Below, piece by piece: positions 9,332 through 27,695 of a stretch of DNA of 32,000 bases (within the stretch, counting starts at the first letter, position 1; the number at the start of each line of letters is the position of its first letter). The stretch comes from Ignicoccus pacificus DSM 13166 (GTDB taxonomy: Archaea > Thermoproteota > Thermoprotei_A > Sulfolobales > Ignicoccaceae). The notes beneath the pieces were generated by a model. The model was not told the DNA's origin. It ran no database searches and saw only the letters and a list, made by a program, of their open reading frames with translations. The stretch lies in NCBI GenBank assembly GCA_025340205.1, contig CP006868.1, positions 180,001-212,000 of the forward strand. The letters are read 5' to 3'. Both the position numbers and the translations under genes were made by a program.

Positions 9332-9332
9332 G

Positions 9333-9752: not shown

Positions 9753-9814
9753 ATTACGTTCACCCTATAGAGTAGGGTAGGGAGAAATGGTTAAAAATAG
9801 GGGAGGTGGGAGAC

Positions 9815-10702: not shown

Positions 10703-10808
10703 AGGTCACACGCTCGAATGTGGATCAACGAAGTCGCGGATTAAATGTAGGAGTGCCCTTCGGGAGACCTTTTTTGCCCCCGCGCGAAGGGCGAAGGGGT
10801 TCCGGATA

Positions 10809-11363
10809 ATGGACGTGTGGAGCGCTTTCGAGATGGCGGCTAGCTCGCTAGACGCCAAGCTCGCCAGGATAGACAGGGCTAGGGATGGAATACCCTTCGA
10901 GGGAACTAAGGCGATAAACGTAGCTAACATCCTAACCCATTTCGAGAGCGTGTTGGAAGAGATAAGGTCTTCTCTTGACTGTTTGAAGGAGCTAAAGGAG
11001 AGCTCTATCGCTAAGGGTAAGAATGTGGTAAGGATAGAGGGAACCCACTGGGCGATGACCACCGAGGACAACGCCTTGGTACTCATGAGGACCAACCCCT
11101 CCTTAGTGATAAAGATATCCCCTGAGGAGGTATACATAAGCTCAAAGCACAAGGACTCGAGCGGTTACGAGGCCAAGTTTACCAATACTGACTTCACGGT
11201 CAGAAAGGATAAGGTAGTGGTGAACGCTAGGTACGCCGACTACGACACTCTGAACAAGAAGAGCTACTACATAAGGTACGCCTTCAGAGAGCTCGGAAGG
11301 ATGGTAACCAAGAGAATACCCAGACTAGTTCAAGACCTCAAGATAAGGGGAGTTCACTGCTGA
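10809..11363 (+). CDS. hypothetical protein (184 aa from the ATG at 10809)
   Basis: The ORF track opens at 10599, but that extension overlaps the opposite-strand propeller gene. The first ATG outside the overlap is 10809 ('MDVWSAFEMAASS...'). No motif recognised. Confidence 0.5.
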   Translation: MDVWSAFEMAASSLDAKLARIDRARDGIPFEGTKAINVANILTHFESVLEEIRSSLDCLKELKESSIAKGKNVVRIEGTHWAMTTEDNALVLMRTNPSLVIKISPEEVYISSKHKDSSGYEAKFTNTDFTVRKDKVVVNARYADYDTLNKKSYYIRYAFRELGRMVTKRIPRLVQDLKIRGVHC

Positions 11364-11941
11364 AGCTTTACCACTTCAAATTCATAGAACAGTTGATCCA
11401 AGTGCTCCGTCAAGTCTTTTAAGTACCTTATTGGTACTACTATTGAATCCAAGAACATGGGTTTTCCCCTCAAGGTTATAACTAAGGGAAGCGCTACCTT
11501 ACCATATTTTGAGAGATGCTCGGATGCCTTGAACACCTTCGCCCTATGCTCCTCCGCTATCCTCCTCAAGGCGCTGGGAGAGCTCCTCTGCCACCTTTTG
11601 CATTCTACCACGATAACCTTCTTGCCGTCATACGCCACCACGTCAAACTCCATCATCCTTCCCGGTATCCTCACCCTGAGTGAGTGGATAGTTTCAAAAC
11701 CTAGGGAATCGAAGACTTTCATCACGTAGCTTTCGAAAGCCCTCCAGCTGAGGTAAGGAGCAGCCTCGCTCTCTCTGAGTACGTTGTTGAGCACTGCCCA
11801 AAGGGCCAAGTCTTCCTTAGCGTCCACGCATATCTTGCCTTCACTCTCATAGATGAAGTCAAAGGCGCTTAGCCACCTAAATGGACCGGGATCGGCACAG
11901 CCCTCCTTAAGAAGGAGGAGAACCTTGTCCTTTAGGTTCAT
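11354..11941 (-). CDS. PD-(D/E)xK nuclease, Mrr-like restriction endonuclease domain protein
   Basis: 'FESYVMKVFDSLGFETI...MEFDVVAYDGKKVIVVECKRWQ' fits the Mrr-cat pattern (E...G(F/Y)...D(I/V)...(Q/E)CKR(Y/W)). I prefer the ATG at 11941 ('MNLKDKV...') over the longer track ORF, which runs into the PIN remnant. Confidence 0.6.
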   Translation of the reverse strand: MNLKDKVLLLLKEGCADPGPFRWLSAFDFIYESEGKICVDAKEDLALWAVLNNVLRESEAAPYLSWRAFESYVMKVFDSLGFETIHSLRVRIPGRMMEFDVVAYDGKKVIVVECKRWQRSSPSALRRIAEEHRAKVFKASEHLSKYGKVALPLVITLRGKPMFLDSIVVPIRYLKDLTEHLDQLFYEFEVVKLQQ

Positions 11942-12002
11942 TGAGACACCAGAGGAAGTTGGTGGTTTGACCGGGATTTGAGCGATAAGGGTCCTATGAG
12001 AG

Positions 12003-12437
12003 TCAAACGACTTTGAGCCAAGGTACCCTCTCGAAATCCTTGTCAAGAGTTGCAGTACTCTCTATGCCATACTTCTTGCAAGTGAGAGCTATTAACGCGT
12101 CAGAAGGCATCAATCCGTAATCCGACATAATTTGGATAACTTCATCAGGTTGAGCATCTAACGACAGCGTCATGAAGATGACTAAAAGCGGATTTACATC
12201 ACTGGTAATCAGATCGAGCACTCTCTCTTCTCCTTCCTCGCTGACAACTGCCTTATGCACTTCGAGCTGAGACCCGTAGCAAGTCTTAGATAGCCGTATA
12301 TGACTTCGCTTATGACGATTCCGTTAATGTAGCCTTCATAAGTTCCCTTTGTTATGCTCTTTATTATAGTATAAGCCTTCTCATCTTGAGCAGCTAAGTA
12401 AGGCCAGTATAACGCTAGAGTCAAGGAACATCTTCAT
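12003..12437 (-). pseudogene. vapC: PIN-domain toxin (VapC-like) disrupted by two frameshifts
   Basis: Hand translation from the ATG at 12437 gives a canonical PIN N-terminus 'MKMFLDSSVILALL' and then a stop. The reading continues in a second frame ('YLAAQDEKAYTIIKSI...GIVISEVIYGYL') and returns to the first frame ('...LMPSDALIALTCKKYGIESTATLDKDFERV'). All four expected acidic positions (D6, E in SEV, D in SDA, D in DKD) are present but spread over three frame segments. The start overlaps the antitoxin stop, as in intact vapBC pairs. Confidence 0.6.
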
Positions 12438-12636
12438 TTTCTATTTCCTCAATTACTTCATAGAACTCTTTATCGCTTAGTTCGGGTCTCCTTCTCTTTG
12501 CGATGCCGAATAGTTTTAATACGTCGTTCCTCTTATTTATTGTTATAAGCACTTCTTCGCCCTCTTTTAGATCCAATGGTTGTAAAGGCTTTAGTACGCC
12601 CTTCTCAAATATCGCCTTTATCTCCTTACTTCCCAT
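12421..12636 (-). CDS. DUF104/AF2212-type antitoxin (VapB-like)
   Basis: 'IKAIFEKGVLKPLQPLDLKEGEEVLITI' is the hallmark N-terminal pattern of DUF104 antitoxins paired with PIN toxins. I prefer the ATG at 12636 ('MGSKEIK'), which gives 71 aa. Confidence 0.7.
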   Translation of the reverse strand: MGSKEIKAIFEKGVLKPLQPLDLKEGEEVLITINKRNDVLKLFGIAKRRRPELSDKEFYEVIEEIENEDVP

Positions 12637-12768
12637 CAGTATGTCCCTATGATCCCATTTTAGGGAAACACAATAAGTATGCGTAATTTCCCTCTTATTC
12701 AAGTTAGCGGGCCCGGTAGGGTGCATAGAAGCGAGGAAAGGGTTGGGGATGAAGACACCAGGGAAGGT

Positions 12769-12845
<77 letters not shown>

Positions 12846-12865
12846 GTTCGGAGGCTCTCTCAAAA

Positions 12866-12877
12866 AGTTTATAAACT
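12866..12877 (-). promoter_or_regulatory. TATA box of the tRNA-Ala gene
   Basis: 'tttataaa' at 12868-12875 lies 23-30 nt upstream of the tRNA 5' end at 12845, the canonical archaeal TATA position. Confidence 0.6.
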
Positions 12878-13097
12878 TAATCCGACATTCCCCGTACTAA
12901 GGAGAAAAATACTCGCTTGGACTGAGTAAATTATGTTACTTTTCAAAGGCTTTCAGCATTATACTAATAAAACTTCTCAAAGATCCCTTGGAGCGCTGAT
13001 GAGGACAGCGGGCTACGCTGATGGATGAGGAAGCGACTTCGGGGCCCGAGGCCCAAGATAAAAGGATGTCCATGTAGGGCTCACGGGATAGCGAGCC

Positions 13098-14477
13098 TTG
13101 GAGAAGGATCACATGGACTACGCCGTTGAACTAGATATAGCAATAAAGCCCACGACCCCTGTTCCCATGATAGGCCAAGAGTACGGTTATTACGTAGGAG
13201 CGGGAAATCCGCTGTTCTCCGTAGGAGGAGGAGTCCTCAGGGAGGCCCTAGGAACTATACTGAAGAGGTACCATGCTCTGAGGGGCTACAAGCTCGTGGA
13301 GACCCCTATCTTGGCTAGGACCACCTTGTACGAGCTGACGGGTCACTTGAGTTTCTATAAGGAGAACATGTTCCTCTTGGACATCGAAGGAGACGAATAT
13401 GCCATAAAGCCGATGAACTGTCCCTTCCACGTTCTGATATTCATGAATACATTGCAGAAGTATCAAGGAAGGGTTCCGTTACCTTTCAAGATGTTCGAGC
13501 TAGGGAAGGTTCATAGGTATGAGATAGCGGGAGCGCTGAGAGGGCTGCTAAGGGTAAGGGCCTTCACCCAAGATGACGCACACATATTTGCAAGGGAGCA
13601 AGACGTACTCCCATCCATCCTCGAGATATTTGACATGATGAAAGATGTTTATGAAAAGGTCTTCCACATACCAGTTCACGGAGGAAGCGTCAAGCTGAGG
13701 CTAAGCCTTTCCGATAAGAGCAAAATAGGCACCGAGTTCATGGGAGAACCAGAAGCCTGGGAGTTCGCAGAGGAGAAGCTCTTCAAGGCCGGCGAGGAGA
13801 TAAAGAGGAAGTACGGAATAGAGTTCTTTGCCGAGGAAGGGGAAGCGGCCTTCTACGGTCCCAAGCTGGACGTGGTGGTCTACCTAGGGGAGGAGCAGAA
13901 GGAGTGGCAGATAGGCACCGTCCAGTTCGACTTCAACTTACCTAAGAGGTTCAAGCTAGTTGAAATGTTGAAGGAGACCCATGGAATAGACTCCCTCTAC
14001 ATGATCCACAGGGCTCTGCTGGGAAGCGTTGAGAGGTTCCTAGGAATATACTTGGAGATGTTTAAGGGTAGGTTACCCTTCACTTTGGCACCTCTGCAAG
14101 CGATGGTCGTCGGAATAAAGACTGGAGACGAGGAAACGGACAAGAAAATAGAGCAAATGGTCAGCGAGGTTAACGAGACTCTGTGGAAGAACGAGATAAG
14201 GACTACTCCGTACTTTACCACCAAGACTAGGTTGAACAAGGACGTTAGGAAGATAGAGAGCACCGTAAAGCCTCCGCTTATGATATACATAGGAAAGAAG
14301 GAGGTAGAGAGTGACAAGGTGTTCGCGAGGCCTTGGGACTTCAGCGCTAAGAGGAGGAAGGGAATTAGTGTAAATCCCAGCGAGGTAATGAGCATAGTTG
14401 AGGACATGGAGAAGGACGTAGTAGAATTGATAGGAAGAAGCGTCAGGATACCGGTGGACCTAGGTTACCTTGCTTAA
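13098..14477 (+). CDS. thrS: threonyl-tRNA synthetase, catalytic form lacking the N-terminal editing domain (ThrRS-cat)
   Basis: Class II motifs are present: 'AIKPMNCPFH', 'HRYEIAGALRGLLRVRAFTQDDAHIF' and 'HRALLGSVERFLG'. The Cys and two His positions correspond to the ThrRS zinc ligands. A C-terminal anticodon-binding-like region follows. At about 455 aa it is too short to contain an editing domain. Start is the TTG at 13098 or the ATG at 13113. Confidence 0.88.
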   Translation: MEKDHMDYAVELDIAIKPTTPVPMIGQEYGYYVGAGNPLFSVGGGVLREALGTILKRYHALRGYKLVETPILARTTLYELTGHLSFYKENMFLLDIEGDEYAIKPMNCPFHVLIFMNTLQKYQGRVPLPFKMFELGKVHRYEIAGALRGLLRVRAFTQDDAHIFAREQDVLPSILEIFDMMKDVYEKVFHIPVHGGSVKLRLSLSDKSKIGTEFMGEPEAWEFAEEKLFKAGEEIKRKYGIEFFAEEGEAAFYGPKLDVVVYLGEEQKEWQIGTVQFDFNLPKRFKLVEMLKETHGIDSLYMIHRALLGSVERFLGIYLEMFKGRLPFTLAPLQAMVVGIKTGDEETDKKIEQMVSEVNETLWKNEIRTTPYFTTKTRLNKDVRKIESTVKPPLMIYIGKKEVESDKVFARPWDFSAKRRKGISVNPSEVMSIVEDMEKDVVELIGRSVRIPVDLGYLA

Positions 14478-14510
14478 AAATTATCAAAATGGCTTTTCGC
14501 GAGACGTGAG

Positions 14511-16676
14511 CTACTTACTCCTTCTTCTAGCCCCAAGCAGCATTGCCGATAATAGAGCCAAGAGCGCCGGTATGGGTATCTTGGAGCTGCTGCTGAGAAG
14601 GGTACTGCTGTTCAGCGGGGCGGCTAAGGTGTACGTGGCTTTCATCGCCCCAAAGGCGTCTCCCAAAACGATAGTCCCTCCAAAGCTAATGGGCACGTTA
14701 AACGAGGTGACTGGTAACAGTATTAACGATTGTGTGAAGGTTGAGATCAGACTAGTTAGAGTACTCGATAAGGTCGTTATACCTTCATAGAGAGTTACTA
14801 TATAGCTAGTAACTGCCGACACGTAAGTGCTGCTCGAGTACGTGGTGGTGAACACAGTAACTCCACCGGCCCCGGTGGTAGTAGTGCCTATTGGTTCGAT
14901 TATCGTCTGTGTGGTGAAGGATAGGGTCGGTATAGTTATCGTTCCGTTAATGCTAGTGGTAAACACGGTCGGTGAAAGAAGTACTGCCTTGCCGATCACA
15001 TTAGTGCAGTATATCTTGGGTGCTACATTTAGCATACTTGTAGGCGTTATCGAAACTATAGCAACCGTCTGTGGGTAAACGTTGAGCATGTCTATGTAGC
15101 CGAGATCGATGTGCTGGTTACCGTCAATTCCAGTTAGCGTGCCCTCTATTCCGTACGGCACACATGTAGCGGTGTAGTACAGCGCCGTGGTGCTACCTCC
15201 TTGTAGCTTGTACAAGGTCCACGAGGCGATGCTGGAGGAGGGGGCGAAGTACAGTATTGGGGTCGAAGCGCTGTATACCGTAGGATAGAGTGTGATTGTG
15301 GTTCTATCAGTTACAGTAGTCGTAACCGTTTTTGTCAAGTATATGGTCTTTGTAGCCCATGAAGTAACAACTACCGTTTTGGTGACCGTTACGGTTTCTG
15401 GGGGAGGTGGAATGTACGTTATCCCTATATCCGTGGTTGGTACATATACTGTCGAGTTTACATACACTGTAGTCGGTGAGGGTACGTAAACGGTCGTTGG
15501 CACATACACGGTTCTATTTATGTATACTGTGGTCGGTGAAGGCACGTAAACCGTTACCGGAGGAAGCGTTACGTATACCGTAGTAGTTACAGTCTTGTAG
15601 ATCGTAGTCGGTATGTATTTGTACACGGTCACATAGACAGTGGTAGTAACGGTCGTCGTGATGTATCTATATAATATGCTGGTCAAGGTGGTAGTAGTGG
15701 TCACAACGGGTATCTGAGGCGTGTAGTAGTCAACCCTGTAGATGTAGACGTTGCCATCTTGATTCGCTACTGCTATCAAATCATACCACCAAGCGACGCT
15801 GGAGGAGCTATCTGAACCCACGGAAGTGTAAGCCTCTAGATTACCGTTTACACTATCTCTAATTTTAAGGATAGTGGAACTGAGTCCTTCGAGTATTGCT
15901 ACATATTGGCAATCCGGACTGAAGGCGATGTCAGTTACTCCAAATTCACTTTGGTACCAAATTAACCTAGGCTGCGTAGGGTCTGAGAGACTATACATGT
16001 ATAGGGTATTGTCGGTAGCTACGGCCAAGTAACCTCCGCAAGCGGCTACTATGTTGGGATTGTTTACCGAGATTGAGCCAAGTTGGATTCCGCTATATCC
16101 ATCAATTATATTAACTCTATCGTTGTCATAATCAGCAACGTAGACATATAGATCCGAACCGCTGTGGTATACTGCTACGCCGTGAGGAGGGACCTCTTGC
16201 GAAACCGACCAGCCATACTGAGTATAGATATCCACCCCTCTGATGCCAGCTCCGCCGCTGAGTAAGACCGTATCGTCATCTAGCATAAGGGCATCCCACC
16301 ATCCGGTGTACCCAGTAACGCTGGAAGCTGTGAATGAACTTACCAAGTAACCGTCGGTGTTGAAAATGTAGACAGAACCATCCCAAGTCACGAATGCGAA
16401 GTAACCGTAACCAAAGCTCCCACCCATTATCATTCCCGACACATATGCTGAGTTGATCTGCGAGAACGACTGATCGTAGAAGTAGACGTTGTAATCTCCC
16501 CCTACTGCTAGTATACCATTATATGAGAACGCAGCGCTCTGAGGAGTGAAGGGTACGCTTATGGATCTGACGTACGATAAGCTTATAGCGTTAGCCAACA
16601 CAGTGACTGCTAAGAGAAACAGCGTATATCGCAAGCGCCTCCCCGTTTCCCCCACCGAATATTTGCTTCTCGCCAA
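14511..16676 (-). CDS. secreted surface protein: propeller module, T/V/Y-rich beta region, two-Cys domain, Thr-rich stalk, IPIP-TM-RRRSK C-terminal anchor
   Basis: N-terminal hydrophobic signal ('YTLFLLAVTVLANA'). Propeller motifs 'AACGGYLAVATDN', 'AFSPDCQYVAIL' and 'VAWWYDLIAVANQDGNVYIYRV'. Two-Cys domain 'TATCVPYG...LNVAPKIYCTNV'. The C-terminus is 'KIPIPALLALLSAMLLGARRRSK'. It lies 34 nt downstream of the archaeosortase-like gene on the same strand. The exact start (TTG at 16676 or internal) is uncertain. Confidence 0.8.
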   Translation of the reverse strand: MARSKYSVGETGRRLRYTLFLLAVTVLANAISLSYVRSISVPFTPQSAAFSYNGILAVGGDYNVYFYDQSFSQINSAYVSGMIMGGSFGYGYFAFVTWDGSVYIFNTDGYLVSSFTASSVTGYTGWWDALMLDDDTVLLSGGAGIRGVDIYTQYGWSVSQEVPPHGVAVYHSGSDLYVYVADYDNDRVNIIDGYSGIQLGSISVNNPNIVAACGGYLAVATDNTLYMYSLSDPTQPRLIWYQSEFGVTDIAFSPDCQYVAILEGLSSTILKIRDSVNGNLEAYTSVGSDSSSSVAWWYDLIAVANQDGNVYIYRVDYYTPQIPVVTTTTTLTSILYRYITTTVTTTVYVTVYKYIPTTIYKTVTTTVYVTLPPVTVYVPSPTTVYINRTVYVPTTVYVPSPTTVYVNSTVYVPTTDIGITYIPPPPETVTVTKTVVVTSWATKTIYLTKTVTTTVTDRTTITLYPTVYSASTPILYFAPSSSIASWTLYKLQGGSTTALYYTATCVPYGIEGTLTGIDGNQHIDLGYIDMLNVYPQTVAIVSITPTSMLNVAPKIYCTNVIGKAVLLSPTVFTTSINGTITIPTLSFTTQTIIEPIGTTTTGAGGVTVFTTTYSSSTYVSAVTSYIVTLYEGITTLSSTLTSLISTFTQSLILLPVTSFNVPISFGGTIVLGDAFGAMKATYTLAAPLNSSTLLSSSSKIPIPALLALLSAMLLGARRRSK
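15433..15551 (-). repeat. imperfect about 60-nt tandem duplication inside the CDS, encoding 2x 'VYVPSPTTVY(I/V)N(R/S)TVYVPTT'
   Basis: Two adjacent units (15433-15491 and 15492-15551) are alignable by eye and encode a 20-aa unit twice. They sit within a longer T/V/Y low-complexity segment. Confidence 0.7.
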
Positions 16677-16710
16677 GGAAAATAAGTCTCTATGAGAGTA
16701 AGAAAGATCT

Positions 16711-17586
16711 TCAAGTTACCCGCTCTCCTCGTTGTAACTTCCCAACTCTTTCAACCAGTAAAGGCTCTATTGGCTTCAATATACACCACTCCATCAAATC
16801 TATCTTAAGAACCTTCCCAAAGATCACGATGAATAGTGTTCCGTTTATTATCCATGTTAGCAACGACGTTAACATATGTGCAGAATACCACGGTCTTCCA
16901 AGTACGTAAAAGTTGCTAAATCCTCTTGTAGCGATGTAATTCTCTACTTGGAATCCAAACAGCATTATCAGTAGGATGACTCTAGCTATGTTCGCTGAAA
17001 TGAGTAAGATCAAGAATAGCATACTACTCCCAAGAAAGCGCACAACGAATTTCTTCCCTCTCTTGCTGTAAAGGCTTCTCACAAAGAGAGCTATGATCAG
17101 CGGCGTGAAGAATACTAAATACCTTAACGAACTGCAAGTGTAATGGAACCATACGTTCTCAGTATATATTACAACGATGTTCTGATGAGCACTAAGTGTT
17201 GTTATATGGAGATCGTGAGAGTCGGTGTTCACGAGAATGTTAAAAGAATTATCAAGGTGAAGGTGATTGAAAATGAAGGAAAGTAGTTTCATTTCAAAGG
17301 ATACGAACATGCTCGAGAGAGACGTGAACGCGGATGCCGCATTGAATATAATTAAGCTCAGGAGGGTAATTGAGAAGGACAAAGTGTAGATACATGATCC
17401 ATCTCTATCAATTAGAGCCAAGATTAGGAGTAGGGGGAGAGAAAGCAAGGACATGAACCCTATAGTGCGCGGGATTTCATGAAAGATGTATCCCATAGCA
17501 GTAACTCCTAGAAGAGATAATTGCAATAATAGTAGCAATGCAGCGAGTAATCTGAAGAACAGTTTCAGACGTATCCTCCACTTCAC
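16711..17586 (-). CDS. polytopic membrane protein with exosortase/archaeosortase-like catalytic motifs (candidate archaeosortase)
   Basis: 291 aa with about 7 hydrophobic helices. 'ENVWFHYTCSSLRYLVFF' (Cys151) resembles the family 'CSG(I/L)RS(L)' active-site context at the start of a helix. 'LLISANIARVILL' (Asn199/Arg202) resembles the 'N..R' motif 51 residues later. 'GRPWYSAHMLTS' supplies Arg231/His237. GTG start. The assignment is by remembered motif pattern, not a search. Confidence 0.5.
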   Translation of the reverse strand: MKWRIRLKLFFRLLAALLLLLQLSLLGVTAMGYIFHEIPRTIGFMSLLSLPLLLILALIDRDGSCIYTLSFSITLLSLIIFNAASAFTSLSSMFVSFEMKLLSFIFNHLHLDNSFNILVNTDSHDLHITTLSAHQNIVVIYTENVWFHYTCSSLRYLVFFTPLIIALFVRSLYSKRGKKFVVRFLGSSMLFLILLISANIARVILLIMLFGFQVENYIATRGFSNFYVLGRPWYSAHMLTSLLTWIINGTLFIVIFGKVLKIDLMEWCILKPIEPLLVERVGKLQRGERVT

Positions 17587-17669
17587 TTTCGTCTTCCTCT
17601 GTATGTATAAAGATTAGCCTTATTATCTTTTCTACAAAGAGCATTTGGGGATGAGAGATAGATCGTAGT
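17587..17669. promoter_or_regulatory. back-to-back divergent promoter region (archaeosortase-like gene / giant protein gene)
   Basis: 83-bp gap. 'gtatgtataaag' (about 17611-17622) lies about 28-35 nt upstream of the minus-strand GTG at 17586. 'ccttattatctttt' (about 17628-17642) lies about 30 nt upstream of the plus-strand TTG at 17670. Confidence 0.35.
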
Positions 17670-20600
17670 TTGTTGTTTCTCATCGTAGTGTTGGTATTGA
17701 ACGTCCGCGCCGCGTTAATAGTGATTCCGTTGCCTGACGGTAGAGCGATAACGAATATAATTCCCTATTCTCATTACATAAAAGTGAGAGTCATTGATAT
17801 GAATCATAACTATGCTAACCTTTTAACATTACTTCCTAAGGACTACCCTAACTGCCTAGGTTTGAAGGATGCCTTACCGTTAACCTTTATGTACGGCTGG
17901 GGCAAGTATTACTTAGTACACTATAATACTACAAGTGCCAATATTGACGTTGTCCTCTGTAAACCTTCCGAGTTAGGTGATATCAAGCCAATTATCCGCG
18001 CCATTCAAAAGGGAGACTCAAAAGGAATATCCTTACCAATATCGATCGCTAACGGAAGAGGCATATATGTCTTTATCTCACTCGAACATTTATTCCAGAC
18101 CTTACTCTATGAGCGAGTGTCAGCGACCGTCATTATGGACAATGGTGTCCTATTCGGTTCAATATCTAACGACTCGCCCATCTATACGATGCTCCGCTAT
18201 AGGGACTCCTTACTGATGCTCTTTGAACCGGCGGGTTTCAACGAACTTGATCTTGTTGAACATAATCTTACCTCTAATTCTCTAAGAATTATTTATAGGT
18301 TCCATCAGCCCATATTTGACATTAAAGCTTGTGATTCAACACTAGCAGTACTTACTAAAGCTCCAGAGGGGCTGGAGATAAAGATAGGTAAGGTAGATCG
18401 AGATAAATTCAACATAGAAAAAATAAAGAGGTTGGACGTTGATGCCGACCACGCATCTCAGAGCTTTACTCGTGATTGTAAGTACCTAGCAATATTATAC
18501 AAGGAAAAGAGCAACGCCCACGTCGCGTTACTAAATACGAGCGACCTCTCGGTTATAGGTTCAAAGGAAGTTCGAGTTAGTGGAATACCCATTGCTCTTG
18601 CCCTTCAGGGCAGTGAGTTATCGGCTATTACCCTAATTAAGAGCGATGATGTCTTTTTCCAAGACAGTTCGACTAATCCAATCGATGTTGCGTATATATC
18701 TTTAAGCGATCTTCTGCCCAAGAAGTATTTGTTAGAACTGTTAAAACTAAGAAGGAATGTTCATGAGCTTGGATCTTATGAGTATTATATGATTTTACCT
18801 CCGAAAAGAGGCCAAAGTTTACTAAAGAGAATCGAGGATGTAAAAGATGTTTGGAATAACATCACGTTAGTGATAAAAACAATGTTCGCTCTATTAAAAT
18901 ATAAGTCCTCCAGCGAATTAGTGGAAAGTGCTACTGAGTTGATCAATAGGGCAATAAATGAGACCGAACCTCTACTCGACGTGCTCAACACATCAAGTTC
19001 GATACGATTAGAAAAAGTTAATGCGGAGATAATTAGAAATCTCAACAAGGGTTGCAATATCACCTTCTCTAAGAACTTCCTTCACAATACTCCTCACTTT
19101 ATCTTGAGTACAGCAGAACTTTGTAGTAAAAGCACTGCGGAAAGCGTAGCGGAGCTCTTGTACGAGGGGTTCTTGCGATGCCTCACTCTCTCCAACGTTA
19201 CAAGGCTCAACGTTACCGGTGCGCTGCAGTGCGTCGATGTACGGAAGCAGTTGGAAGCGTTAGCATCTAACGTTTCTCAACTACTCTTCTTCTTGAAGAA
19301 CTTGGTTGTACTTCACTTCATAAATTCCGAAAAAGAATTCGCTTCCAAGCGTTACTTGAGTGATTCAACGCTTGGGCTATTGTTAAGTGACGTTAGGAAG
19401 TTAGACAAGCTGCTAAGGATACTCGCCAGTATGAATATAACCGTTAAACAAGGGAAGATGTTTAACTTGGAGACATTACTCCCGCCTATTAAGGTTAGGA
19501 AGGAATGCTCGCCACCATCAAGTCTACTTGAATTAGATCACTTAATCAATCTATTTAAAGCGAATAATCTGGATACAACGTTGAGACCTGATAGTATAGT
19601 TGAAGGAGCGCTCAAAGGATGGCTTGCACACTCCTACGTCATTTGTAAAGATAAGAATGAAACCGTTATTGAATACTTCCCTCTTCGGAGGAACTCGATT
19701 CCGGTAGTGGAGCTAGGGAACAATACTCTGCTTATTGGGGATGGAAAGGACTTAAGAATTATTTCGTTAATCAACGGAACAATGAAAAGCTATTTATTAA
19801 ACTCAAGCATATGGAAGGCTATACACTTAGGCCGTGATTATATCGTAGCTACTTCGGAAGGCATCTACTTAGTCAGCTTAAGTGGACTGAAGAAGCTAAT
19901 CACCATTCATAAGTCCGGTTATTACTACGCTCGCTATTTAGATGAAGAACTCATTGCTCCAAACCAAGTGTCCATATGTTACTATTTCTATACCCACTAC
20001 GGCACGAACGTTACATGCTTCCTCCTAGATTCAAGAGGGAACGTAATAAGGAGTTATACAAGAGCCTTTAGAAAGATACTAAGTAACGTGTTGTTGTTAG
20101 ACAATTACACGATTGTTAGCTATTCAACTAGTAGTACAGTTTATTACAACGCCGTAGAAATCGCTCAAGTTCCAGGAACGATAAAGTCGGCATTGTGTAG
20201 CCGGCTCTTGGTTGCAACCGATAATGAAAATGGGACAACGATATTCTATTTCCTAGGATATAAGAAAGTTCGACCGCTATGGATTTTGAACGTCTACGAT
20301 GACCTTGTGTGGCGCGGCGATATATGTAACTACGTTTTCCTTAAAAAGAGTAAAAGACTGCTGGACATATTTGGTAATTACTATACTTTAAATATGCTCC
20401 CAAGAGGCGACATGAAGATATATCGCAATGGCTCAAAACTCGTGATGCTGGAAATTTTCCCAGATTCTGATGGAAGATCATTGATTGGAAAGGTAGTAAT
20501 AAAAATCACAGAAGTGGACTTGAAGGAACCAGTCTTGGGACAGGAGAGGATTAAGAAGGTCAGGATATTGAATGGCGATACGTACCTCTCGTACTTAAGT

Positions 20601-21857
20601 TGCTTAATCAATCTTATGAATCCGAATATGTGTTATGACATCGTGAAGTCCGAGAAGGACGCTCTTGTGGTAAAGCTTAAACATGGAGTCTACTGGAAGA
20701 ATAGCATCTATGCTAATATTACTTTAGCGTTCATCAATAAGGCGAATGATACCTTGCATATCGAGATACAGAAGGCGTTACGACTCGAATTACCTCCGGG
20801 TAGTTCAAGGGTTCTCCGTATAAAACACGTACCTATCTACCTTACTCACTATAAAATTTTACCTATATTAATAGAATATCAATCCTCTCCGTACTTGAGA
20901 TTATACAACACCGTATTGGTTAATAACTCTCGTGATTCCCTAAAAGAGGTTTTAGTAAAGAATGTAGAGGGATTTGTAGAAGCTCTTAGCACATCCCCTA
21001 AGTACCTTGCTGTTGCCTTCAACAATATCACTTTCGAACCCAACAATTCAATACTCCATAACGGTCATATCTACATTTTAGATATTAATGGAAGCTTAGT
21101 GGAGCAGTACAATGTAAAAGGCGAGATGGAAGACGCCTCCTACTGCTGTAACAAGTTCGGCTTTGTAAATTTGGATGATTACGCCTACATCTACGACCTC
21201 TCAACTGGAACTTGGAAGAAGGTGTACGTTGGAGACGATTACGATAGAGCAATTACCATGCTTAAGAACGGCTTTCTGGCTGGTTGTTGTAATCTCGCCT
21301 ACTTCGATTTTCAAGGGCACAAAAGGTGGGACGTGAGTATGAATTACATTGTAAACGGTCCAGCTGTTTACAAAGGATACGTTTACGTTCCACAATATGC
21401 TGGCACTATGAACGCGCTCAGAATCCTCAAACTCTCGGATGGAGGTGAGGTAAGGACCATAGAGTTCAATGAACGGGTTCTGGACGCTCAAGTTTGTGGA
21501 AATTACTTAGCTCTTGGAACTGCTCACCATGTTTACCTTTATGACATTAGCGATCCAACGAATCCAAGAGAGCTTTGGAATTACAATGGGATTGCAAGGA
21601 GCTGTAATGGAGGATATTGTTATGGAGCTTGGAACGTCGCTTTCAGTCCGGACTGCAAGTACTTGGTTAGTGCTGATTATGAAGATCAAAAAATCCATCT
21701 GTTTGATGTACAAACTGGTAAGCAAGTGCTGGAGAGGAGGTTTGAAAGTAGTGTTGGCGAAGTCGCTTGGTGGAGGAACAGGATAGCTGTTGGATTGGAA
21801 AATGGTAAGGTTTACGTGTTCAAGCTGATAATACCTCCAATAACTTCCAAGAAGTAG
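17670..21857 (+). CDS. giant (1395 aa) secreted or N-terminally anchored, sequon-rich protein with a C-terminal propeller module shared with neighbouring surface proteins
   Basis: One uninterrupted 4.2-kb frame. Hydrophobic N-terminus 'LFLIVVLVLNVRAALIVIP'. I counted at least 20 N-x-S/T sequons by eye. A helical Leu-rich middle section spans about aa 350-650. The last about 250 aa align by eye to the N-terminal propeller of the 572-aa protein ('SYCCNKFGF/SYCCGKFSF', 'LKLSDGG/VKLSDGG', 'VCGNYLAL/ICGNYLAV', 'NPRELW'). There is no C-terminal TM anchor. The TTG start directly follows an in-frame TAG, so the true start may be slightly downstream. Confidence 0.8.
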   Translation: MLFLIVVLVLNVRAALIVIPLPDGRAITNIIPYSHYIKVRVIDMNHNYANLLTLLPKDYPNCLGLKDALPLTFMYGWGKYYLVHYNTTSANIDVVLCKPSELGDIKPIIRAIQKGDSKGISLPISIANGRGIYVFISLEHLFQTLLYERVSATVIMDNGVLFGSISNDSPIYTMLRYRDSLLMLFEPAGFNELDLVEHNLTSNSLRIIYRFHQPIFDIKACDSTLAVLTKAPEGLEIKIGKVDRDKFNIEKIKRLDVDADHASQSFTRDCKYLAILYKEKSNAHVALLNTSDLSVIGSKEVRVSGIPIALALQGSELSAITLIKSDDVFFQDSSTNPIDVAYISLSDLLPKKYLLELLKLRRNVHELGSYEYYMILPPKRGQSLLKRIEDVKDVWNNITLVIKTMFALLKYKSSSELVESATELINRAINETEPLLDVLNTSSSIRLEKVNAEIIRNLNKGCNITFSKNFLHNTPHFILSTAELCSKSTAESVAELLYEGFLRCLTLSNVTRLNVTGALQCVDVRKQLEALASNVSQLLFFLKNLVVLHFINSEKEFASKRYLSDSTLGLLLSDVRKLDKLLRILASMNITVKQGKMFNLETLLPPIKVRKECSPPSSLLELDHLINLFKANNLDTTLRPDSIVEGALKGWLAHSYVICKDKNETVIEYFPLRRNSIPVVELGNNTLLIGDGKDLRIISLINGTMKSYLLNSSIWKAIHLGRDYIVATSEGIYLVSLSGLKKLITIHKSGYYYARYLDEELIAPNQVSICYYFYTHYGTNVTCFLLDSRGNVIRSYTRAFRKILSNVLLLDNYTIVSYSTSSTVYYNAVEIAQVPGTIKSALCSRLLVATDNENGTTIFYFLGYKKVRPLWILNVYDDLVWRGDICNYVFLKKSKRLLDIFGNYYTLNMLPRGDMKIYRNGSKLVMLEIFPDSDGRSLIGKVVIKITEVDLKEPVLGQERIKKVRILNGDTYLSYLSCLINLMNPNMCYDIVKSEKDALVVKLKHGVYWKNSIYANITLAFINKANDTLHIEIQKALRLELPPGSSRVLRIKHVPIYLTHYKILPILIEYQSSPYLRLYNTVLVNNSRDSLKEVLVKNVEGFVEALSTSPKYLAVAFNNITFEPNNSILHNGHIYILDINGSLVEQYNVKGEMEDASYCCNKFGFVNLDDYAYIYDLSTGTWKKVYVGDDYDRAITMLKNGFLAGCCNLAYFDFQGHKRWDVSMNYIVNGPAVYKGYVYVPQYAGTMNALRILKLSDGGEVRTIEFNERVLDAQVCGNYLALGTAHHVYLYDISDPTNPRELWNYNGIARSCNGGYCYGAWNVAFSPDCKYLVSADYEDQKIHLFDVQTGKQVLERRFESSVGEVAWWRNRIAVGLENGKVYVFKLIIPPITSKK

Positions 21858-21858
21858 C

Positions 21859-21863
21859 TTTTT
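21859..21863 (+). terminator. oligo-T tract after the giant gene
   Basis: 'tagcTTTTTatg' lies immediately after the stop. Confidence 0.3.
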
Positions 21864-22150
21864 ATGCCTTCATCTTTTCAGTAGCTAATGCTTTATTTAA
21901 CCGCTATTAGTTCTACGAAATCCTTTCTCAATATTAATAAGAGATGGATTTCAAGCACTTCCACAGTGACTATTGGAATTCAACTCTACGCTCTTGTTAT
22001 TTGTCTTTGCTACGCTTGTGAATGATGCATCATTATTGATTATCGTTGCTCGTCAAAGCTGCTGAAATAGCTTTTGAATTATTGACATTAATGAAGGTTC
22101 TAAGGTGGTTGAAAAAGATAGGATTCATTAACGTTACGATAGTTAGATAG

Positions 22151-22717
22151 TTAATGAGGAGTAAAGCCAAGGCTAAGGACATAATGAACCACTATAGGTA
22201 TTATAAGGAACGGTAACGCAAAGGACAAAACCCTCCAATCGAACACCATGAAAAGGAAACCCACGAAGCTAATCATGGAGAAAACTACTAATATAAAAAT
22301 CCATATTGGTATGTTGTATAGCAGTAGAGGTACGCTGGCGTAAATTGTTGCTTTACCTAGCCAAGCTAGTTCAGTAAAATAGGCACCACTAAAGGGAAGG
22401 AGGATTGAGAAGAACAGCTGCCCTAGTATGTTATTCTTATCCTCTAGAAGACTGGTAGAGAGTGACAGCGAATAACTGAAGGCTAAGAGGGTTAGGAGAA
22501 ATATCAAGTATTGTGTCAGACCTAATACACTTACCGGCCAATCGAGACCGCTTAATCTAAAGATCGCAGCCGAGATAAGGAATGTCAAGAGAACAATACT
22601 CGTTTGTCCGTTGAGATTGGAATTAGTACGTACAGCATTGTGCGTAGAACCTGTGGAGGAGAGAGCCAAGATCGGTAATATTATCGTTAGTAGAACTAGG
22701 GTAGCACGCTTCTTCAT
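22151..22717 (-). CDS. Cys-free polytopic membrane protein, paralogue A (188 aa)
   Basis: Signal-like N-terminus 'MKKRATLVLLTIILPILALSS' followed by 4-5 hydrophobic helices. It shares 'FRLSGLDWP(V/I).V.G(L/M)..YLIFL..LL.FS(Y/F)S' with the protein at 23544..24131. It is divergent from the 204-aa anchored protein. Confidence 0.7.
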   Translation of the reverse strand: MKKRATLVLLTIILPILALSSTGSTHNAVRTNSNLNGQTSIVLLTFLISAAIFRLSGLDWPVSVLGLTQYLIFLLTLLAFSYSLSLSTSLLEDKNNILGQLFFSILLPFSGAYFTELAWLGKATIYASVPLLLYNIPIWIFILVVFSMISFVGFLFMVFDWRVLSFALPFLIIPIVVHYVLSLGFTPH

Positions 22718-22932
22718 AGCATACCCCTCCGCATAACCTTTCTCTTTATGCTGTAATATGAGTTAATCATTTAAAATGCTATCTTTTAAAGGTCCTGAAG
22801 CGATGTCGTATTGCCATATGATACTATAAACAAAAACAACCCTTAGCTAGACAACAACTCTATCCTTACTGAGTCTCTTTAGAAAACATTTCTATAGTAG
22901 ACTGTTTTTAACAAATCTACGGGTATAGAACT

Positions 22933-23547
22933 ATGAAGAAGTACCTTCTCTTCCTAGCTCTCTTTCCGATAGCGCTTGCTGCGAATACAGCGGAGTTTGT
23001 CATACCTCCTTTTCCTCAGGGTGTGCTCACAGTTTTTGTTTCAATGAACATAGGCCCGGAAGTGATAACCTATAAAAATACCTTCCAACATCCTTTAACC
23101 ACAAATTTAATTGTAATTGATTTAGGTAAGACACCAGTCGTCCCAGTAGGTCTCTCGGTAAGAGGCTACATCCACGTACAAGCGAGTATGAGTAGCGGCT
23201 ATTGCTTTGAACCTTATGAGACCTACACCATCAAGTTGTACAGTATAGGTGAAAACGCAACAAAGCCTGTTACTTCTGTTAAGGGTACTCTTACCAGCAT
23301 ATGCGACTACTATTACACTTACGGTTTTTATGCAAACCCTCCATCGAGGTACAATTACTTCGGCTACCTGCCATTAACAACGTTCACCGCCACTACTGGT
23401 CTTACGTTTCGCAACTATATAACCATGACATTAGACTTAAAGGTCAGTATGACGTCCTTGCCTACGACTTCAATAGTGGTCCCTCTCCTGATAGGGCTAT
23501 CGCTGCTACTTATGAGATTCAAGACACAAGGAAGAAAAATTGCTTAG
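22933..23547 (+). CDS. small secreted protein with a compact two-Cys domain and a C-terminal TM/basic anchor (204 aa)
   Basis: Signal peptide 'MKKYLLFLALFPIALAANT'. 'GYCFEPYE...TSICDYYY' resembles the two-Cys domain of its neighbours. The C-terminus is 'SIVVPLLIGLSLLLMRFKTQGRKIA'. 'ctgtttttaac' lies about 25 nt upstream of the ATG and suggests a leaderless-type promoter. Confidence 0.7.
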   Translation: MKKYLLFLALFPIALAANTAEFVIPPFPQGVLTVFVSMNIGPEVITYKNTFQHPLTTNLIVIDLGKTPVVPVGLSVRGYIHVQASMSSGYCFEPYETYTIKLYSIGENATKPVTSVKGTLTSICDYYYTYGFYANPPSRYNYFGYLPLTTFTATTGLTFRNYITMTLDLKVSMTSLPTTSIVVPLLIGLSLLLMRFKTQGRKIA

Positions 23548-24131: not shown

Positions 24132-24254
24132 AGCTTTGCATCCCCATTACGATTTCTTCATACTACATGTAGTTAAAGTCATCTCTCCGAACACTATGGT
24201 AGAGACAAAACTTTTCTAGGATTATAGGATTGTAAAGGGCGGGCTAGAAAGGAA

Positions 24255-25973
24255 ATGGGGAAGGTGATATTAACACTCTTGGTTACTCTTGGAACGTTAC
24301 TAGCGATGCGATTAGCGTTGCTAGGAACTTTCAGCATAAATTCTATCAACGCAATAGCATTATCTGACGATGGTCGTTATATAGGCGTTGCTGCTGATGA
24401 TGGTGCTTACGTACTCAACCTAGACGGTGATATAGTTGCGAAATACTATAGTTATAACACAATAAGCGATGTTTCCTATTGTTGCGGAAAGTTTAGTTTC
24501 GTTGCATATGATTACGTTTACGTATATGACCTCGTAAGCAAAAAATGGGAGAAGATAAAGATAGATCCAGACTATGGTAAGTACATAGTAGCAACCAACA
24601 ATGGATTCGTAGTTGGAAAAGATGGAGTAGCGTTCTATAAATGGGATGGTACTCAAATGTGGAGTACCAACTACGACCTACTTTCCAAGCCTGTCATCTA
24701 CGATAACTATATCTTAATACCAGAAGACTACAGTTACTATGATTATTATCTAAGAGTTGTTAAATTAAGTGATGGGGGAACCATTGCTTCCCCCCTTGAC
24801 TTCGGGTATAGTTTTAAAATGGCTATCTGTGGGAACTATTTAGCGGTACTAGAATACTATAAGTTAATACTTTACAATATAACGGATGTTAAAAATCCAA
24901 GAGAGCTCTGGTATGACACTGGATTCTCCGATGCTTCTAGTGTTGCGTTTACCGATCATTGTGAATACGTCCTTGTGAGCGATGGGGACGATGTGTATTT
25001 CTACAATGTAACTAATGGAAAGAAGGTGTATAATATGACGATAAGCGGCCTCAAACGCGTAAGTTGGAAACAGTCAATAATGGTTGCAGATCTCGGCAAT
25101 GAGCTTTCGATATATTATCCCCTACCTGAGATAGAATTAACCGATAAAACGCAAACGCTTACGTGGACTGCCATACAATCTAACACCCTATACAGTTTTA
25201 CTGGCACATGCTTCGCCTACGGTATGGCGGCTACTATAATTGGTTTCGGTAATACAATAACGTTTAGTGGATACAAAACCATTATTGTGAGTAATGGGAA
25301 TAGTTACACTTACTCGAGCATAACTACCATAACTCAAGGCGGTAGCGTGACAACAACCATTGACGTAGGAAAAGTAGTATTAGGGAAGACAATAACAAAG
25401 AATCTCACGGTAGTCCTTTCGTTCTCGCCAGCCACAGCACTAAACTTTGTACCGAAAATAGTCTGCACTAACGTAACCGCTACCTCGTATTCCGGTTCCT
25501 TATCCTCATTAAACACTGTAATCACAGAAACACTTACTATATCTTTCCCACATTACACCAGCTCTACCGTCACTTACTATGTGACGACGACTACGGAAAT
25601 AGGAGGTGTAATCTTACCCACTACCGTGACAGCATCATCAGTAACGTATTTCAGTACAATATCAACAACTACGACAACTATTCTGATCACGAAACCAACT
25701 ACCAGTTTCTCAATAATACAGACACTAGGTAATGGTATTATTTCAACAATACTACTTAGTGCCTATCCAGTCAATTTTATGATGATAAAGCCAATAATTA
25801 TACTGTTAACCAACAACGCGGCCAAGTATACTGCCACGCTGTTGTTCACTGGAACATATCTAGCACAAACCATTAATGACGTAACCCCAACCACAAGCGT
25901 CGTGAACACAGTCCCCGTCCCCCTCATCTTGTCACTTATCGGATTCCTCCTAAGAAAGAGAAGTAGGGGGTGA
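24255..25973 (+). CDS. secreted surface protein: N-terminal propeller module, two-Cys domain, Thr-rich stalk, VPVP-TM-RKRSRG anchor (572 aa)
   Basis: Hydrophobic N-terminus. The propeller is alignable to the giant protein's C-terminus, and the 18-mer 'aatccaagagagct(t/c)tgg' is shared at 21561-21578 and 24894-24911. Two-Cys domain 'GTCFAYG...LNFVPKIVCTNV'. The C-terminus is 'NTVPVPLILSLIGFLLRKRSRG'. Confidence 0.8.
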   Translation: MGKVILTLLVTLGTLLAMRLALLGTFSINSINAIALSDDGRYIGVAADDGAYVLNLDGDIVAKYYSYNTISDVSYCCGKFSFVAYDYVYVYDLVSKKWEKIKIDPDYGKYIVATNNGFVVGKDGVAFYKWDGTQMWSTNYDLLSKPVIYDNYILIPEDYSYYDYYLRVVKLSDGGTIASPLDFGYSFKMAICGNYLAVLEYYKLILYNITDVKNPRELWYDTGFSDASSVAFTDHCEYVLVSDGDDVYFYNVTNGKKVYNMTISGLKRVSWKQSIMVADLGNELSIYYPLPEIELTDKTQTLTWTAIQSNTLYSFTGTCFAYGMAATIIGFGNTITFSGYKTIIVSNGNSYTYSSITTITQGGSVTTTIDVGKVVLGKTITKNLTVVLSFSPATALNFVPKIVCTNVTATSYSGSLSSLNTVITETLTISFPHYTSSTVTYYVTTTTEIGGVILPTTVTASSVTYFSTISTTTTTILITKPTTSFSIIQTLGNGIISTILLSAYPVNFMMIKPIIILLTNNAAKYTATLLFTGTYLAQTINDVTPTTSVVNTVPVPLILSLIGFLLRKRSRG

Positions 25974-25979
25974 TGGAAG

Positions 25980-26783
25980 ATGAGGAGGGATGTAATTTTA
26001 CTTCTATTGTTACCAGTTACACACGCATACCTACTCTCAATATCGCCAATCACGGCCACAATTTCGTGGACCATATACACTGTGGGGGCGGAGGGTACAT
26101 TTGCCTATGCTTACAAAGCTACTTGCTATCCGTACGGTCTAAAAGCTGACGTAGGTACCTCAGTTTTGGATATCGGATCAATTGCCTTCTTCGGTGACCG
26201 CTATTCACCGATACTTCAATTAACGGCAAGTGCTGACGTGAAAACCTTAAACAATGTAATGGAAAAAGTATGGTGCGATGATGCGACATTAAAAATCTAC
26301 TATGTTACCACCACGGTAACTATACTCAACTATACAGGTGTACTGGAGGCTATAGTCACTTCGTACGTTACAGCCACCTACTTGTTACCCAAATTAACCA
26401 CTACCCAAATAGGCGCAGGGGCATACATTCCTACAGTTGTGTACGTAACAACAACAGTTACGAAACCTATAATAAAGACAATAACCACTACATTAACGCA
26501 GTCCAATATAACTACTACACTTACCGGAACTGCCTTATATTCCAATACTACCTTTTCATACCTACTGCCGGCGGTGAGTGCGACTAAAATAATATTGAAG
26601 CAGATTCCAACCACAATAATCCTTTTGGACAACGTGGCTTTGCTGGGGATAAAGGTATTGGTCAGTAACCCTCTAACTACCACTAGTGTAGCCCTCACAA
26701 CAACGAGTACAACTACTGTTCCGGTTCCATTGCTGCTTAGTTTAGCCTACGTAGCCTTCTTGAGAAAGAGAAAGAGAGGTTAA
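25980..26783 (+). CDS. secreted two-Cys-domain protein with Thr-rich stalk and VPVP-TM-RKRKRG anchor (267 aa)
   Basis: Signal 'MRRDVILLLLLPVTHA'. 'SPITATISWTIYTV...ATCYPYG...KVWCDDA'. The C-terminus is 'TTVPVPLLLSLAYVAFLRKRKRG'. A 'GGGGGTGAT' Shine-Dalgarno-like element precedes the ATG, which lies 6 nt after the upstream stop, consistent with an operon. Confidence 0.8.
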   Translation: MRRDVILLLLLPVTHAYLLSISPITATISWTIYTVGAEGTFAYAYKATCYPYGLKADVGTSVLDIGSIAFFGDRYSPILQLTASADVKTLNNVMEKVWCDDATLKIYYVTTTVTILNYTGVLEAIVTSYVTATYLLPKLTTTQIGAGAYIPTVVYVTTTVTKPIIKTITTTLTQSNITTTLTGTALYSNTTFSYLLPAVSATKIILKQIPTTIILLDNVALLGIKVLVSNPLTTTSVALTTTSTTTVPVPLLLSLAYVAFLRKRKRG

Positions 26784-26858
26784 ACTTATTATCACTCTAT
26801 TAGCTTATCATTTCTCAATTTTATTAGCGGGAAAACTCCTTATCTCTTGAGGAGAGGG

Positions 26859-27695
26859 ATGGGTTTGAAGGGGACGTTACTCTTGTTAATTGCTCTCGCG
26901 TTTGGTGCTTATGCCAACATCATAGTTAGTATAGACCCTGTCACAACAACTGCTACTTGGAACTACTACACTGTCACGGTGGCAAATAACACGACTAGTA
27001 CGTTGGAAGTAGTAAGGACAGCAACATGTACTGCTATAGGCGCGCAGATGACGTTAATTGGTGAGAAGACGGCAGTAGTTAACATGGGAACTGTAAGAGC
27101 CGATGGTACAAGTTTGGTGCCAGAACCCCAATATTCCACGACCGTAACCTTGTCCTCGCTTAGTATGATCCAGAACTTCGTGCCTTATATATGGTGTGAT
27201 GATGTGACGGTGACCACATATCTACTCAATACTACCACTTCAACCATATCGACTACTGGTCTCTATACGACCAAAGTTCTAAGCACTACAGTTGAGACTT
27301 ACCTATACCCCAGTGTGACCTTAATTCAAGAAGGCCCCGATCTATACGTACCCTCAACTACCTTGGTGACGACATTAGTGACGCGAGCCATAACCTCTAC
27401 AATTAGTACTTGGATAAGCGCTACGACGACTACCATACAAACTCTCTCTTTCGCTCTCGCTTCAACAGTATATAGTATGGCACTGCTGGCGGTAAAACCA
27501 ACAAGCGCTATGATAACATCGCTTCCCACGAGTGTCGTAAACAACGACAACCTGGCTACCATGAACGTACCCGTATACCTCTCAAATACGCTACTTTCAT
27601 CTTCAGGGAACGGCGGTATACCAACCGTAGCTCTATTAACGCTTATAGTACCCTTCTTGAGGAGACTAAGGTCCAATAGAGAAGGGACAGAGTAA
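26859..27695 (+). CDS. secreted two-Cys-domain protein with Ser/Thr-rich stalk and C-terminal TM/basic anchor (278 aa from the ATG; the track ORF starts at a TTG at 26847)
   Basis: Signal 'MGLKGTLLLLIALAFGAYA'. 'DPVTTTATWNYYTV...ATCTAIG...NFVPYIWCDDV'. The C-terminus is 'GGIPTVALLTLIVPFLRRLRSNREGTE'. Confidence 0.78.
   Translation: MGLKGTLLLLIALAFGAYANIIVSIDPVTTTATWNYYTVTVANNTTSTLEVVRTATCTAIGAQMTLIGEKTAVVNMGTVRADGTSLVPEPQYSTTVTLSSLSMIQNFVPYIWCDDVTVTTYLLNTTTSTISTTGLYTTKVLSTTVETYLYPSVTLIQEGPDLYVPSTTLVTTLVTRAITSTISTWISATTTTIQTLSFALASTVYSMALLAVKPTSAMITSLPTSVVNNDNLATMNVPVYLSNTLLSSSGNGGIPTVALLTLIVPFLRRLRSNREGTE

Follow-up and report, generated by a model that had tools for sequence, protein, structure and literature searches.

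The window analysed here, a 32,000-nucleotide stretch of the genome of Ignicoccus pacificus DSM 13166, contains a gene, IPA_01160, whose product we lean towards regarding, from its sequence, as a divergent sorting enzyme of the exosortase/archaeosortase superfamily, with candidate substrates among neighbouring secreted proteins that end in [IV]P[IV]P-like tails. The gene (Table 1) is one unbroken open reading frame (ORF) of 291 amino acids (aa) on the minus strand with a GTG start, the plus-strand frame being full of stops, and its product is 100% identical to IPA_01160, annotated as a 'hypothetical protein' of this strain. A GAGG, read from the sequence 9 nucleotides (nt) upstream of the GTG, and a TATA-like box are plausible expression signals of the gene. 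A preliminary description of this DNA had picked out the protein for a Cys-Arg-His motif set and had proposed a divergent exosortase or archaeosortase. Of that proposal, the Cys motif, the Asn-x-x-Arg (N-x-x-R) motif and a superfamily-level signal are supported, and the third motif and an archaeosortase subfamily are not. The protein falls in no named subfamily, and formal membership fails for every curated model; it is probably a lineage-restricted, previously unrecognised member of the superfamily.

Profile matches and candidate active-site motifs

A scan of the full-length protein against Pfam gave no match, and the corresponding NCBIfam scan gave a single one, to exosortase O (XrtO, TIGR04489), with an expectation value (E) of 5.9e-5 and 22 bits over residues 125–219. 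Taken as a segment, residues 125–219 match XrtO at E = 2.7e-6 and 26 bits along profile positions 145–233 of 451, with residues 125–140 contributing about 4.7 bits (segment from 125 compared with segment from 140). The core segment also matches XrtN (TIGR04476; E = 4.7e-4, 19 bits, profile positions 139–215 of 406), PF09721 is matched by residues 125–219 only (E = 0.002, 17.9 bits), and sub-segments of the protein match the TIGR04178 family signature (E = 0.07, 10–13 bits). All four matches span one Cys-to-Arg core, the NCBIfam coordinates are mutually consistent and colinear, and every profile match with E < 0.1 in the two libraries falls in the exosortase/archaeosortase superfamily.

A consensus-style exosortase bait, designed here for calibration and retrieval only, was used to locate the family residues in these models. 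The bait matches TIGR04178 without insertions or deletions, which assigns the family residues to profile positions 7 (Cys), 49 (Asn), 52 (Arg) and 73 (His). Because T150 of IPA_01160 aligns to position 6, C151 falls on position 7, and by the same calibration it occupies, in each of the three NCBIfam models, the column of the family Cys (TIGR04178 position 7, XrtO 169, XrtN 157). The near-consensus bait itself reaches only 17–24 bits on XrtO and XrtN; thus, low scores across subfamilies are normal in this superfamily.

The hand numbering of C151, N199, R202, R231 and H237 proved exact when checked by script: ENVWFHYTCSSLRYLVFF starts at residue 143 and holds C151, LLISANIARVILL starts at 194 and holds N199 and R202, and LGRPWYSAHMLTS starts at 229 and holds R231 and H237. 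An in-silico mutational scan was then read against wild-type scores of 25.2 bits (XrtO), 17.1 bits (XrtN) and 10.4 bits (TIGR04178). The C151A, N199A and R202A substitutions lower the XrtO score to 20.1 (−5.1 bits), 21.0 (−4.2 bits) and 20.5 (−4.7 bits), respectively, and each abolishes both the XrtN and the TIGR04178 match. Conversely, S153G raises all three scores by 4–5 bits, to 29.5, 22.4 and 15.0, and matches to XrtY and XrtA emerge. R155A costs 2.6 bits on XrtO. Among the controls, R170A and H148A shift XrtO by less than 1 bit, and a third, R183A, lowers it by 3.4 bits. The three losses and the gain place the Cys and N-x-x-R motifs on conserved family columns and the Ser on the Gly column, so that the placement of the proposed catalytic Cys, the N-x-x-R helix and the CSS-for-CSG substitution of the preliminary description are all supported.

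The third catalytic residue, for which R231 or H237 had been suggested, found no such backing in these models. R231A leaves XrtO at 25.0 and XrtN at 17.1 bits and raises TIGR04178 to 13.7, and H237A gives 25.0, 17.1 and 10.8 bits. H237 is separated from a preceding 'GF' by a 12-residue insertion; removing that insertion gives the His no weight, and control deletions raise the score equally. Only in MAFFT alignments does H237, after the insertion, pair with the invariant family His. On the other side of the core, N136 sits 15 residues before C151, as in the family 'GN' motif, and HMMER aligns the loop to 'reGnvieL..tLeVaeaCSG'.

The topology of the protein is compatible with an active site on the outer face. 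The loop ahead of C151, described earlier as having roughly 45 non-hydrophobic residues, comprises 43 (residues 108–150) and has no Lys or Arg, and Lys and Arg number five in the N-terminal tail, six in loop 170–183 and six in the C-terminal tail. By the positive-inside pattern, these three regions would be cytoplasmic, and C151, N199/R202, R231 and H237 would face outside, with N199 and R202 in the outer half of helix 184–212. This outward placement agrees with Table 1 of PMC9263693, where the entry for ArtA reads 'Extracellular'. The length of 291 aa given earlier is correct, and the seven helices counted with it become six or seven: segment 88–107 is only amphipathic, and a consistent topology appears to need six spanning helices with this segment not crossing the membrane. 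A model by AlphaFold2 (AF2) guided by an exosortase alignment, which is not independent evidence, places a β-hairpin at residues 137–146, preceding the Cys, and strands within loop 108–150 are present both in this model and in a single-sequence run. Sequence and profile searches of the PDB found no exosortase-family structure, and a Foldseek search of the guided model against the PDB gave a meaningless best E of 5.4.

Tail-bearing secreted proteins in a low-GC island

The gene neighbourhood supplies the strongest new evidence. The gene that follows IPA_01160 encodes a candidate substrate. This gene, IPA_01155, is read from the same strand and has its TTG start 34 nt beyond the end of IPA_01160; the spacer contains no terminator-like site, and the two genes are probably co-transcribed. 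The product of IPA_01155 has a signal-peptide-like N-terminus, a weak β-propeller signature and long Thr-rich stretches. In GenBank the protein has 695 aa and starts 26 codons downstream of the TTG; because the longer ORF adds the signal-peptide-like N-terminus MARSKYSVGETGRRLRYTLFLLAVTVLANAISL, the annotation probably begins too far downstream. Residues ~330–400 consist of near-repeats, 'TTVYV(P/N)' and 'VYVPSPTTVYVN', that form a Thr/Val/Tyr-rich stalk, which is probably heavily glycosylated. A homolog search with IPA_01155 returned only the protein itself, its low-complexity stretch having swamped the word-indexed search.

Five proteins with signal peptides, encoded within 13 kb, end in the same arrangement of an [IV]P[IV]P-like motif, 10–13 hydrophobic residues and an Arg-Lys tail (Table 1). 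This predicted layout corresponds to the three-part design known from the substrates of sortases, exosortases and archaeosortases. Four of the five are paralogs that have in common a module of about 250 aa at 25–31% identity, with tails 29–70% identical. The tails match C-terminal sorting-domain models only, Heimdall-CTERM among them, and always below threshold: the IPA_01155 tail reaches 16.3 bits on MYXO-CTERM (cutoff 20) and 15.6 on GC_trans_RRR (cutoff 15.85), along with JDVT-, PEP-, CGP- and PGF-CTERM, and the tail of the 267-aa paralog reaches 14.1 bits on the archaeal PEF-CTERM model (cutoff 23). A metagenome scan with the paralog substrate module yielded 14 stretches, none of which was confirmed by tblastn.

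Table 1. Positions of IPA_01160, its candidate motifs and the tail-bearing genes within the window
Feature	Position	Strand	Description
IPA_01160	16711..17586	−	291-aa polytopic membrane protein, candidate divergent exosortase/archaeosortase-superfamily enzyme; sub-threshold XrtO, XrtN, TIGR04178 and PF09721 matches
TATA-like box CTTTATAC (TTTATA)	17605..17612	−	~22 nt upstream of the IPA_01160 GTG; read from sequence
43-aa extracytoplasmic loop, residues 108–150	17137..17265	−	predicted β-hairpin right before C151
C151-S-S-L-R155, candidate catalytic Cys motif	17122..17136	−	family consensus CSG[IL]R; placed by model columns and mutation scan; aligned to invariant C, S, R
N199-I-A-R202, candidate N-x-x-R motif	16981..16992	−	in the next transmembrane helix; placed by mutation scan and HMMER alignment to 'aNalRv'
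H237, possible third-motif His	16876..16878	−	outer start of last helix; MAFFT pairing only
IPA_01155, candidate substrate	14511..16676	−	721 aa; signal peptide, β-propeller, Thr-rich stalk, C-terminal tripartite tail
IPA_01155 tail	14514..14579	−	IPIP-ALLALLSAMLLGA-RRRSK
204-aa secreted protein	22933..23547	+	not evidently related to the other four; tail VVP-LLIGLSLLLM-RFKTQGRKIA (23476–23544)
572-aa secreted β-propeller paralog	24255..25973	+	tail VPVP-LILSLIGFLL-RKRSRG (25911–25970)
267-aa secreted paralog	25980..26783	+	tail VPVP-LLLSLAYVAFL-RKRKRG (26718–26780)
282-aa secreted paralog	26847..27695	+	tail IPTV-ALLTLIVPFL-RRLRSNREGTE (27618–27692)

Near 16.5 kb the guanine-plus-cytosine (GC) fraction falls from about 0.46–0.54 (~0.49) to about 0.39–0.42 (~0.40) and does not rise again within the window; IPA_01160 thus opens a compositionally distinct island. 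The high-GC part (1–16500) carries housekeeping genes and the low-GC part (16500–32000) orphan surface-protein genes, and the latter may represent an envelope island that is variable or was acquired. Its secreted β-propeller surface proteins are Thr-rich and presumably glycosylated.

Interleaved with the tail-bearing genes are two paralogous genes (22151–22717 and 23544–24131, both minus strand) for multi-transmembrane proteins of 188 and 195 aa, which have signal-like N-termini and a common 'FRLSGLDWP'. Both may contribute to the same system in an accessory role. They were also weighed as alternative processing enzymes and set aside, having no meaningful Pfam or NCBIfam match and no evident catalytic motif. 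Divergently from IPA_01160 runs a gene (17670–21857, plus strand) for a 1395-aa protein whose N-terminus looks like a signal or an anchor and whose C-terminal WD40-like β-propeller resembles the propeller of the 721-aa IPA_01155 ('AWWRNRIAVGLENGKVYVF' and 'AWWYDLIAVANQDGNVYIY', respectively). The 1395-aa protein ends in '...KLIIPPITSKK' and lacks a hydrophobic tail. Outside the island, a 295-aa protein (9815–10702, minus strand) has a weak WD40/PQQ-like β-propeller, which fits the expansion of WD40/β-propeller proteins, with no assigned role, reported for I. hospitalis (PMC2614490). Three further genes appear unrelated to the findings on IPA_01160: an AIM24-family protein (28209–28862, plus strand; PF01987, E = 4e-57), a V4R-domain protein (31361–31855, minus strand) and an Mrr_cat restriction-endonuclease-like protein (11354–12046, minus strand).

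Chance, descent and decay as explanations

The strongest alternative, which we consider unlikely, is that the motif arose by chance. IPA_01160 would then be a fast-evolving orphan of the surface-protein island, a membrane protein unrelated to exosortases that serves, for example, as a structural partner, a chaperone or a receptor subunit. Its CSSLR and N-x-x-R strings would imitate the signature in combination with generic transmembrane hydrophobicity, and the tails of the neighbours would be ordinary permanent anchors. Because the protein had been chosen by eye for this motif, its motif bits are not independent evidence and a null must keep the motif. We therefore shuffled residues 125–219 locally 60 times with CSSLR, N199 and R202 held fixed. 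TIGR04178 is matched by 25 of the 60 shuffles, the best of which (E = 5.7e-6) outdoes the real sequence; the TIGR04178 match thus adds no information to that of the motif. On XrtO, by contrast, a single shuffle of the 60 scores (E = 0.0046, where the real segment reaches 2.7e-6), and XrtN is absent from the shuffle families listed, indicating XrtO/XrtN-like similarity in the real segment beyond the motif. The reversed sequence and six local shuffles give no match at E ≤ 10. The reversed control does contain a chance copy of the Cys motif, 'CSGDR', from residues 60–65 ('DRDGSC'; window ~17392–17409, minus strand), a fortuitous occurrence of the kind that an accidental origin would call for. Hence, the motif alone is not beyond chance, and the XrtO/XrtN similarity around it exceeds chance.

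Comparison with real exosortases gave results that depend on the procedure. When 120 real PF09721 proteins (XrtA/XrtD-like), retrieved with the bait, were turned into a profile, IPA_01160 scored −0.9 bits, a value that 517 of 2000 shuffles also reach; hhalign returns a probability of 4.3%. Neither value is significant. The local alignment in the 120-sequence profile still pairs C151, N199, R202 and N136 with the family residues. When IPA_01160 was aligned de novo by MAFFT with 49 real exosortases, all six strictly invariant columns were found to be identical in it (C151, S152, R155, N199, R202 and H237); for the five residues C/R/N/R/H, none of 40 local shuffles recovers all five, and 5 of 40 recover four. 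A smaller MAFFT alignment sets N-x-x-R three residues out of register, and mafft --add misplaces the Cys column, after which 4–7% of shuffles match equally many conserved columns. The homology signal therefore reads as real but weak, and it varies with the procedure used.

A number of results, including the TIGR04178 shuffles, the 120-sequence profile, hhalign and mafft --add just given, weigh against IPA_01160 being a sorting enzyme of this superfamily. The curated cutoffs are missed throughout, with 26 of 250 bits on XrtO, 19 of 200 on XrtN, 13 of 23 on TIGR04178 and 18 of 25.7 on PF09721. The ArtA–F models (TIGR04125, TIGR04144, TIGR03762, TIGR04124, TIGR04293 and others), which do detect the consensus bait, give no match at E ≤ 10 to the full protein or to three sub-segments. 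C, N and R alone supply about 14 of the 25 XrtO bits, and S153 stands in place of the CSG Gly, which is at least 95% conserved among the XrtA-like exosortases collected here. Removing H237 itself costs nothing in the curated models, which do not recognise the third motif. Confidence in the AF2 models is low, with a predicted local distance difference test score (pLDDT) of 54 for the single-sequence run and, for the guided run, a pLDDT of 65 (65–83 in the core, residues 160–260) and a predicted template modelling score of 0.45. The protein is also an orphan: a word-indexed homolog search of 5.8 billion clusters retrieves only IPA_01160 itself, and an exhaustive phmmer search of 1.84 billion representative proteins adds one repetitive junk ORF. 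A genome scan with IPA_01160 found no match, one with the flanking threonyl-tRNA synthetase found bacterial loci only, a metagenome scan with an exosortase-pattern alignment found 600 XrtA-like stretches of which none was confirmed by tblastn against IPA_01160, and a tblastn search of plasmids found no match. As for the neighbours, the common tails may reflect shared descent, because four of the five candidate substrates are paralogs, and many surface proteins of crenarchaea have a plain C-terminal membrane anchor that follows a Ser/Thr-rich stalk.

Much of this, the lack of homologs, the unsupported third motif and the sub-threshold standing of every match in particular, is what an accidental motif would predict. 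Such an origin does not account for the XrtO/XrtN similarity above motif and composition, for the confinement of all matches with E < 0.1 in two libraries to one superfamily, or for the alignment of the pre-Cys hairpin region and of the Asn 15 residues before the Cys. It must also accept as coincidence both the clustering of the motifs on the outer face and the adjacency to five tail-bearing secreted proteins. The outcome that had been expected if the preliminary description were wrong, a negligible hidden Markov model probability or Cys and Arg residues outside the catalytic columns, was not observed. Its comparison with PF09721 and the archaeosortase models comes out half in its favour, with sub-threshold matches to PF09721, XrtO and XrtN and none to ArtA–F.

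It is improbable, in our estimation, that IPA_01160 is a degenerate relic, that is, an inactive or repurposed descendant of an exosortase or archaeosortase with a non-homologous N-terminal half, perhaps serving as a non-enzymatic factor for tail binding or retention: the Ser on a near-invariant Gly column, the insertion that splits H237 from 'GF' with no score for the His in the models, and the extreme divergence, species restriction and low-GC setting would suit such decay, but the Cys, Asn and Arg whose equivalents are essential in ArtA (PMC9263693) are retained, the ORF is intact with a plausible promoter and ribosome-binding site, and the linkage to a substrate-like gene is operon-like.

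Relation to known sorting systems

The best profile matches of IPA_01160 are the bacterial enzymes XrtO and XrtN, with colinear matches that take in the pre-Cys loop, the Cys motif and the N-x-x-R helix. It differs from them in its much shorter length (291 aa) and archaeal origin, in scores an order of magnitude below the cutoffs, and in that the matches cover just ~90 positions of profiles that are 451 and 406 positions long. With the canonical exosortases XrtA/EpsH and XrtD (PF09721, TIGR02602; PEP-CTERM or VPLPA-CTERM signals), it has the six invariant residues of the MAFFT alignment in common, whereas it differs in having CSS for CSG and two insertions, one of 3 residues ahead of N-x-x-R and one of 12 ahead of the His. 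The IPIPA/VPVPL motifs of the neighbours appear similar to VPLPA.

The archaeosortase ArtA is about 300 aa long, and its substrates are Thr-rich glycoproteins. IPA_01160 is like ArtA of Haloferax volcanii in being polytopic, in having Cys and Arg residues on the outer face and in having secreted partners with a motif, a transmembrane helix and a basic tail. The preliminary description had stated that ArtA requires C173, R214 and R253 and that these have a similar spacing; the requirement is documented (PMC9263693), but the spacing differs: the Cys-to-Arg distance is 41 in ArtA and 51 in IPA_01160 and the distance from that Arg to the third residue is 39 compared with 29 (R231) or 35 (H237). 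The signals differ as well, with PGF in ArtA substrates and [IV]P[IV]P in the neighbours of IPA_01160, and no ArtA–F model matches.

By analogy with Haloferax ArtA, a mechanism can be proposed. After Sec export, the secreted proteins would be held in the membrane by their C-terminal tails, consisting of [IV]P[IV]P, a short helix and Arg-Lys residues. Cys151 on the outer face, aided by Arg202 (with Asn199) and a third residue, could then cut at or near the proline motif, and the new C-terminus would be passed on to an acceptor, either a membrane lipid or some other envelope component. In this proposal, the motifs, their profile columns, the topology and the gene neighbourhood are given by the data; that the protein is catalytic, that it cuts the tails, what the acceptor is and which proteins are the substrates would follow by analogy.

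We know of no demonstration of archaeosortase-mediated anchoring outside Haloferax. According to reviews, archaeosortases occur in a subset of Euryarchaeota (PMC6098224), and crenarchaea appear to have neither archaeosortases nor their substrates (PMC3387779). Our literature search found no paper tying archaeosortases to Ignicoccus or its relatives. We put forward only tentatively the further possibility that IPA_01160 founds an archaeosortase-like clade in Ignicoccus (Thermoproteota, formerly Crenarchaeota) with an '[IV]P[IV]P-CTERM' signal of its own, in which the β-propeller (WD40-like) surface proteins typical of the genus would be processed and anchored to lipid.

Should IPA_01160 turn out to be unrelated to exosortases, it would stand as a caution that C…N-x-x-R in a hydrophobic protein suffices to trigger the short TIGR04178 signature model. 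If it is instead a sorting enzyme, the superfamily would reach beyond the curated models tested here, and a new sorting motif would become searchable elsewhere. Ignicoccus, the host of Nanoarchaeum, is unusual in its outer cellular membrane and its lack of an S-layer. A sortase-like enzyme encoded next to secreted β-propeller proteins with a common tail would then give a first clue to protein attachment in the Ignicoccus envelope.

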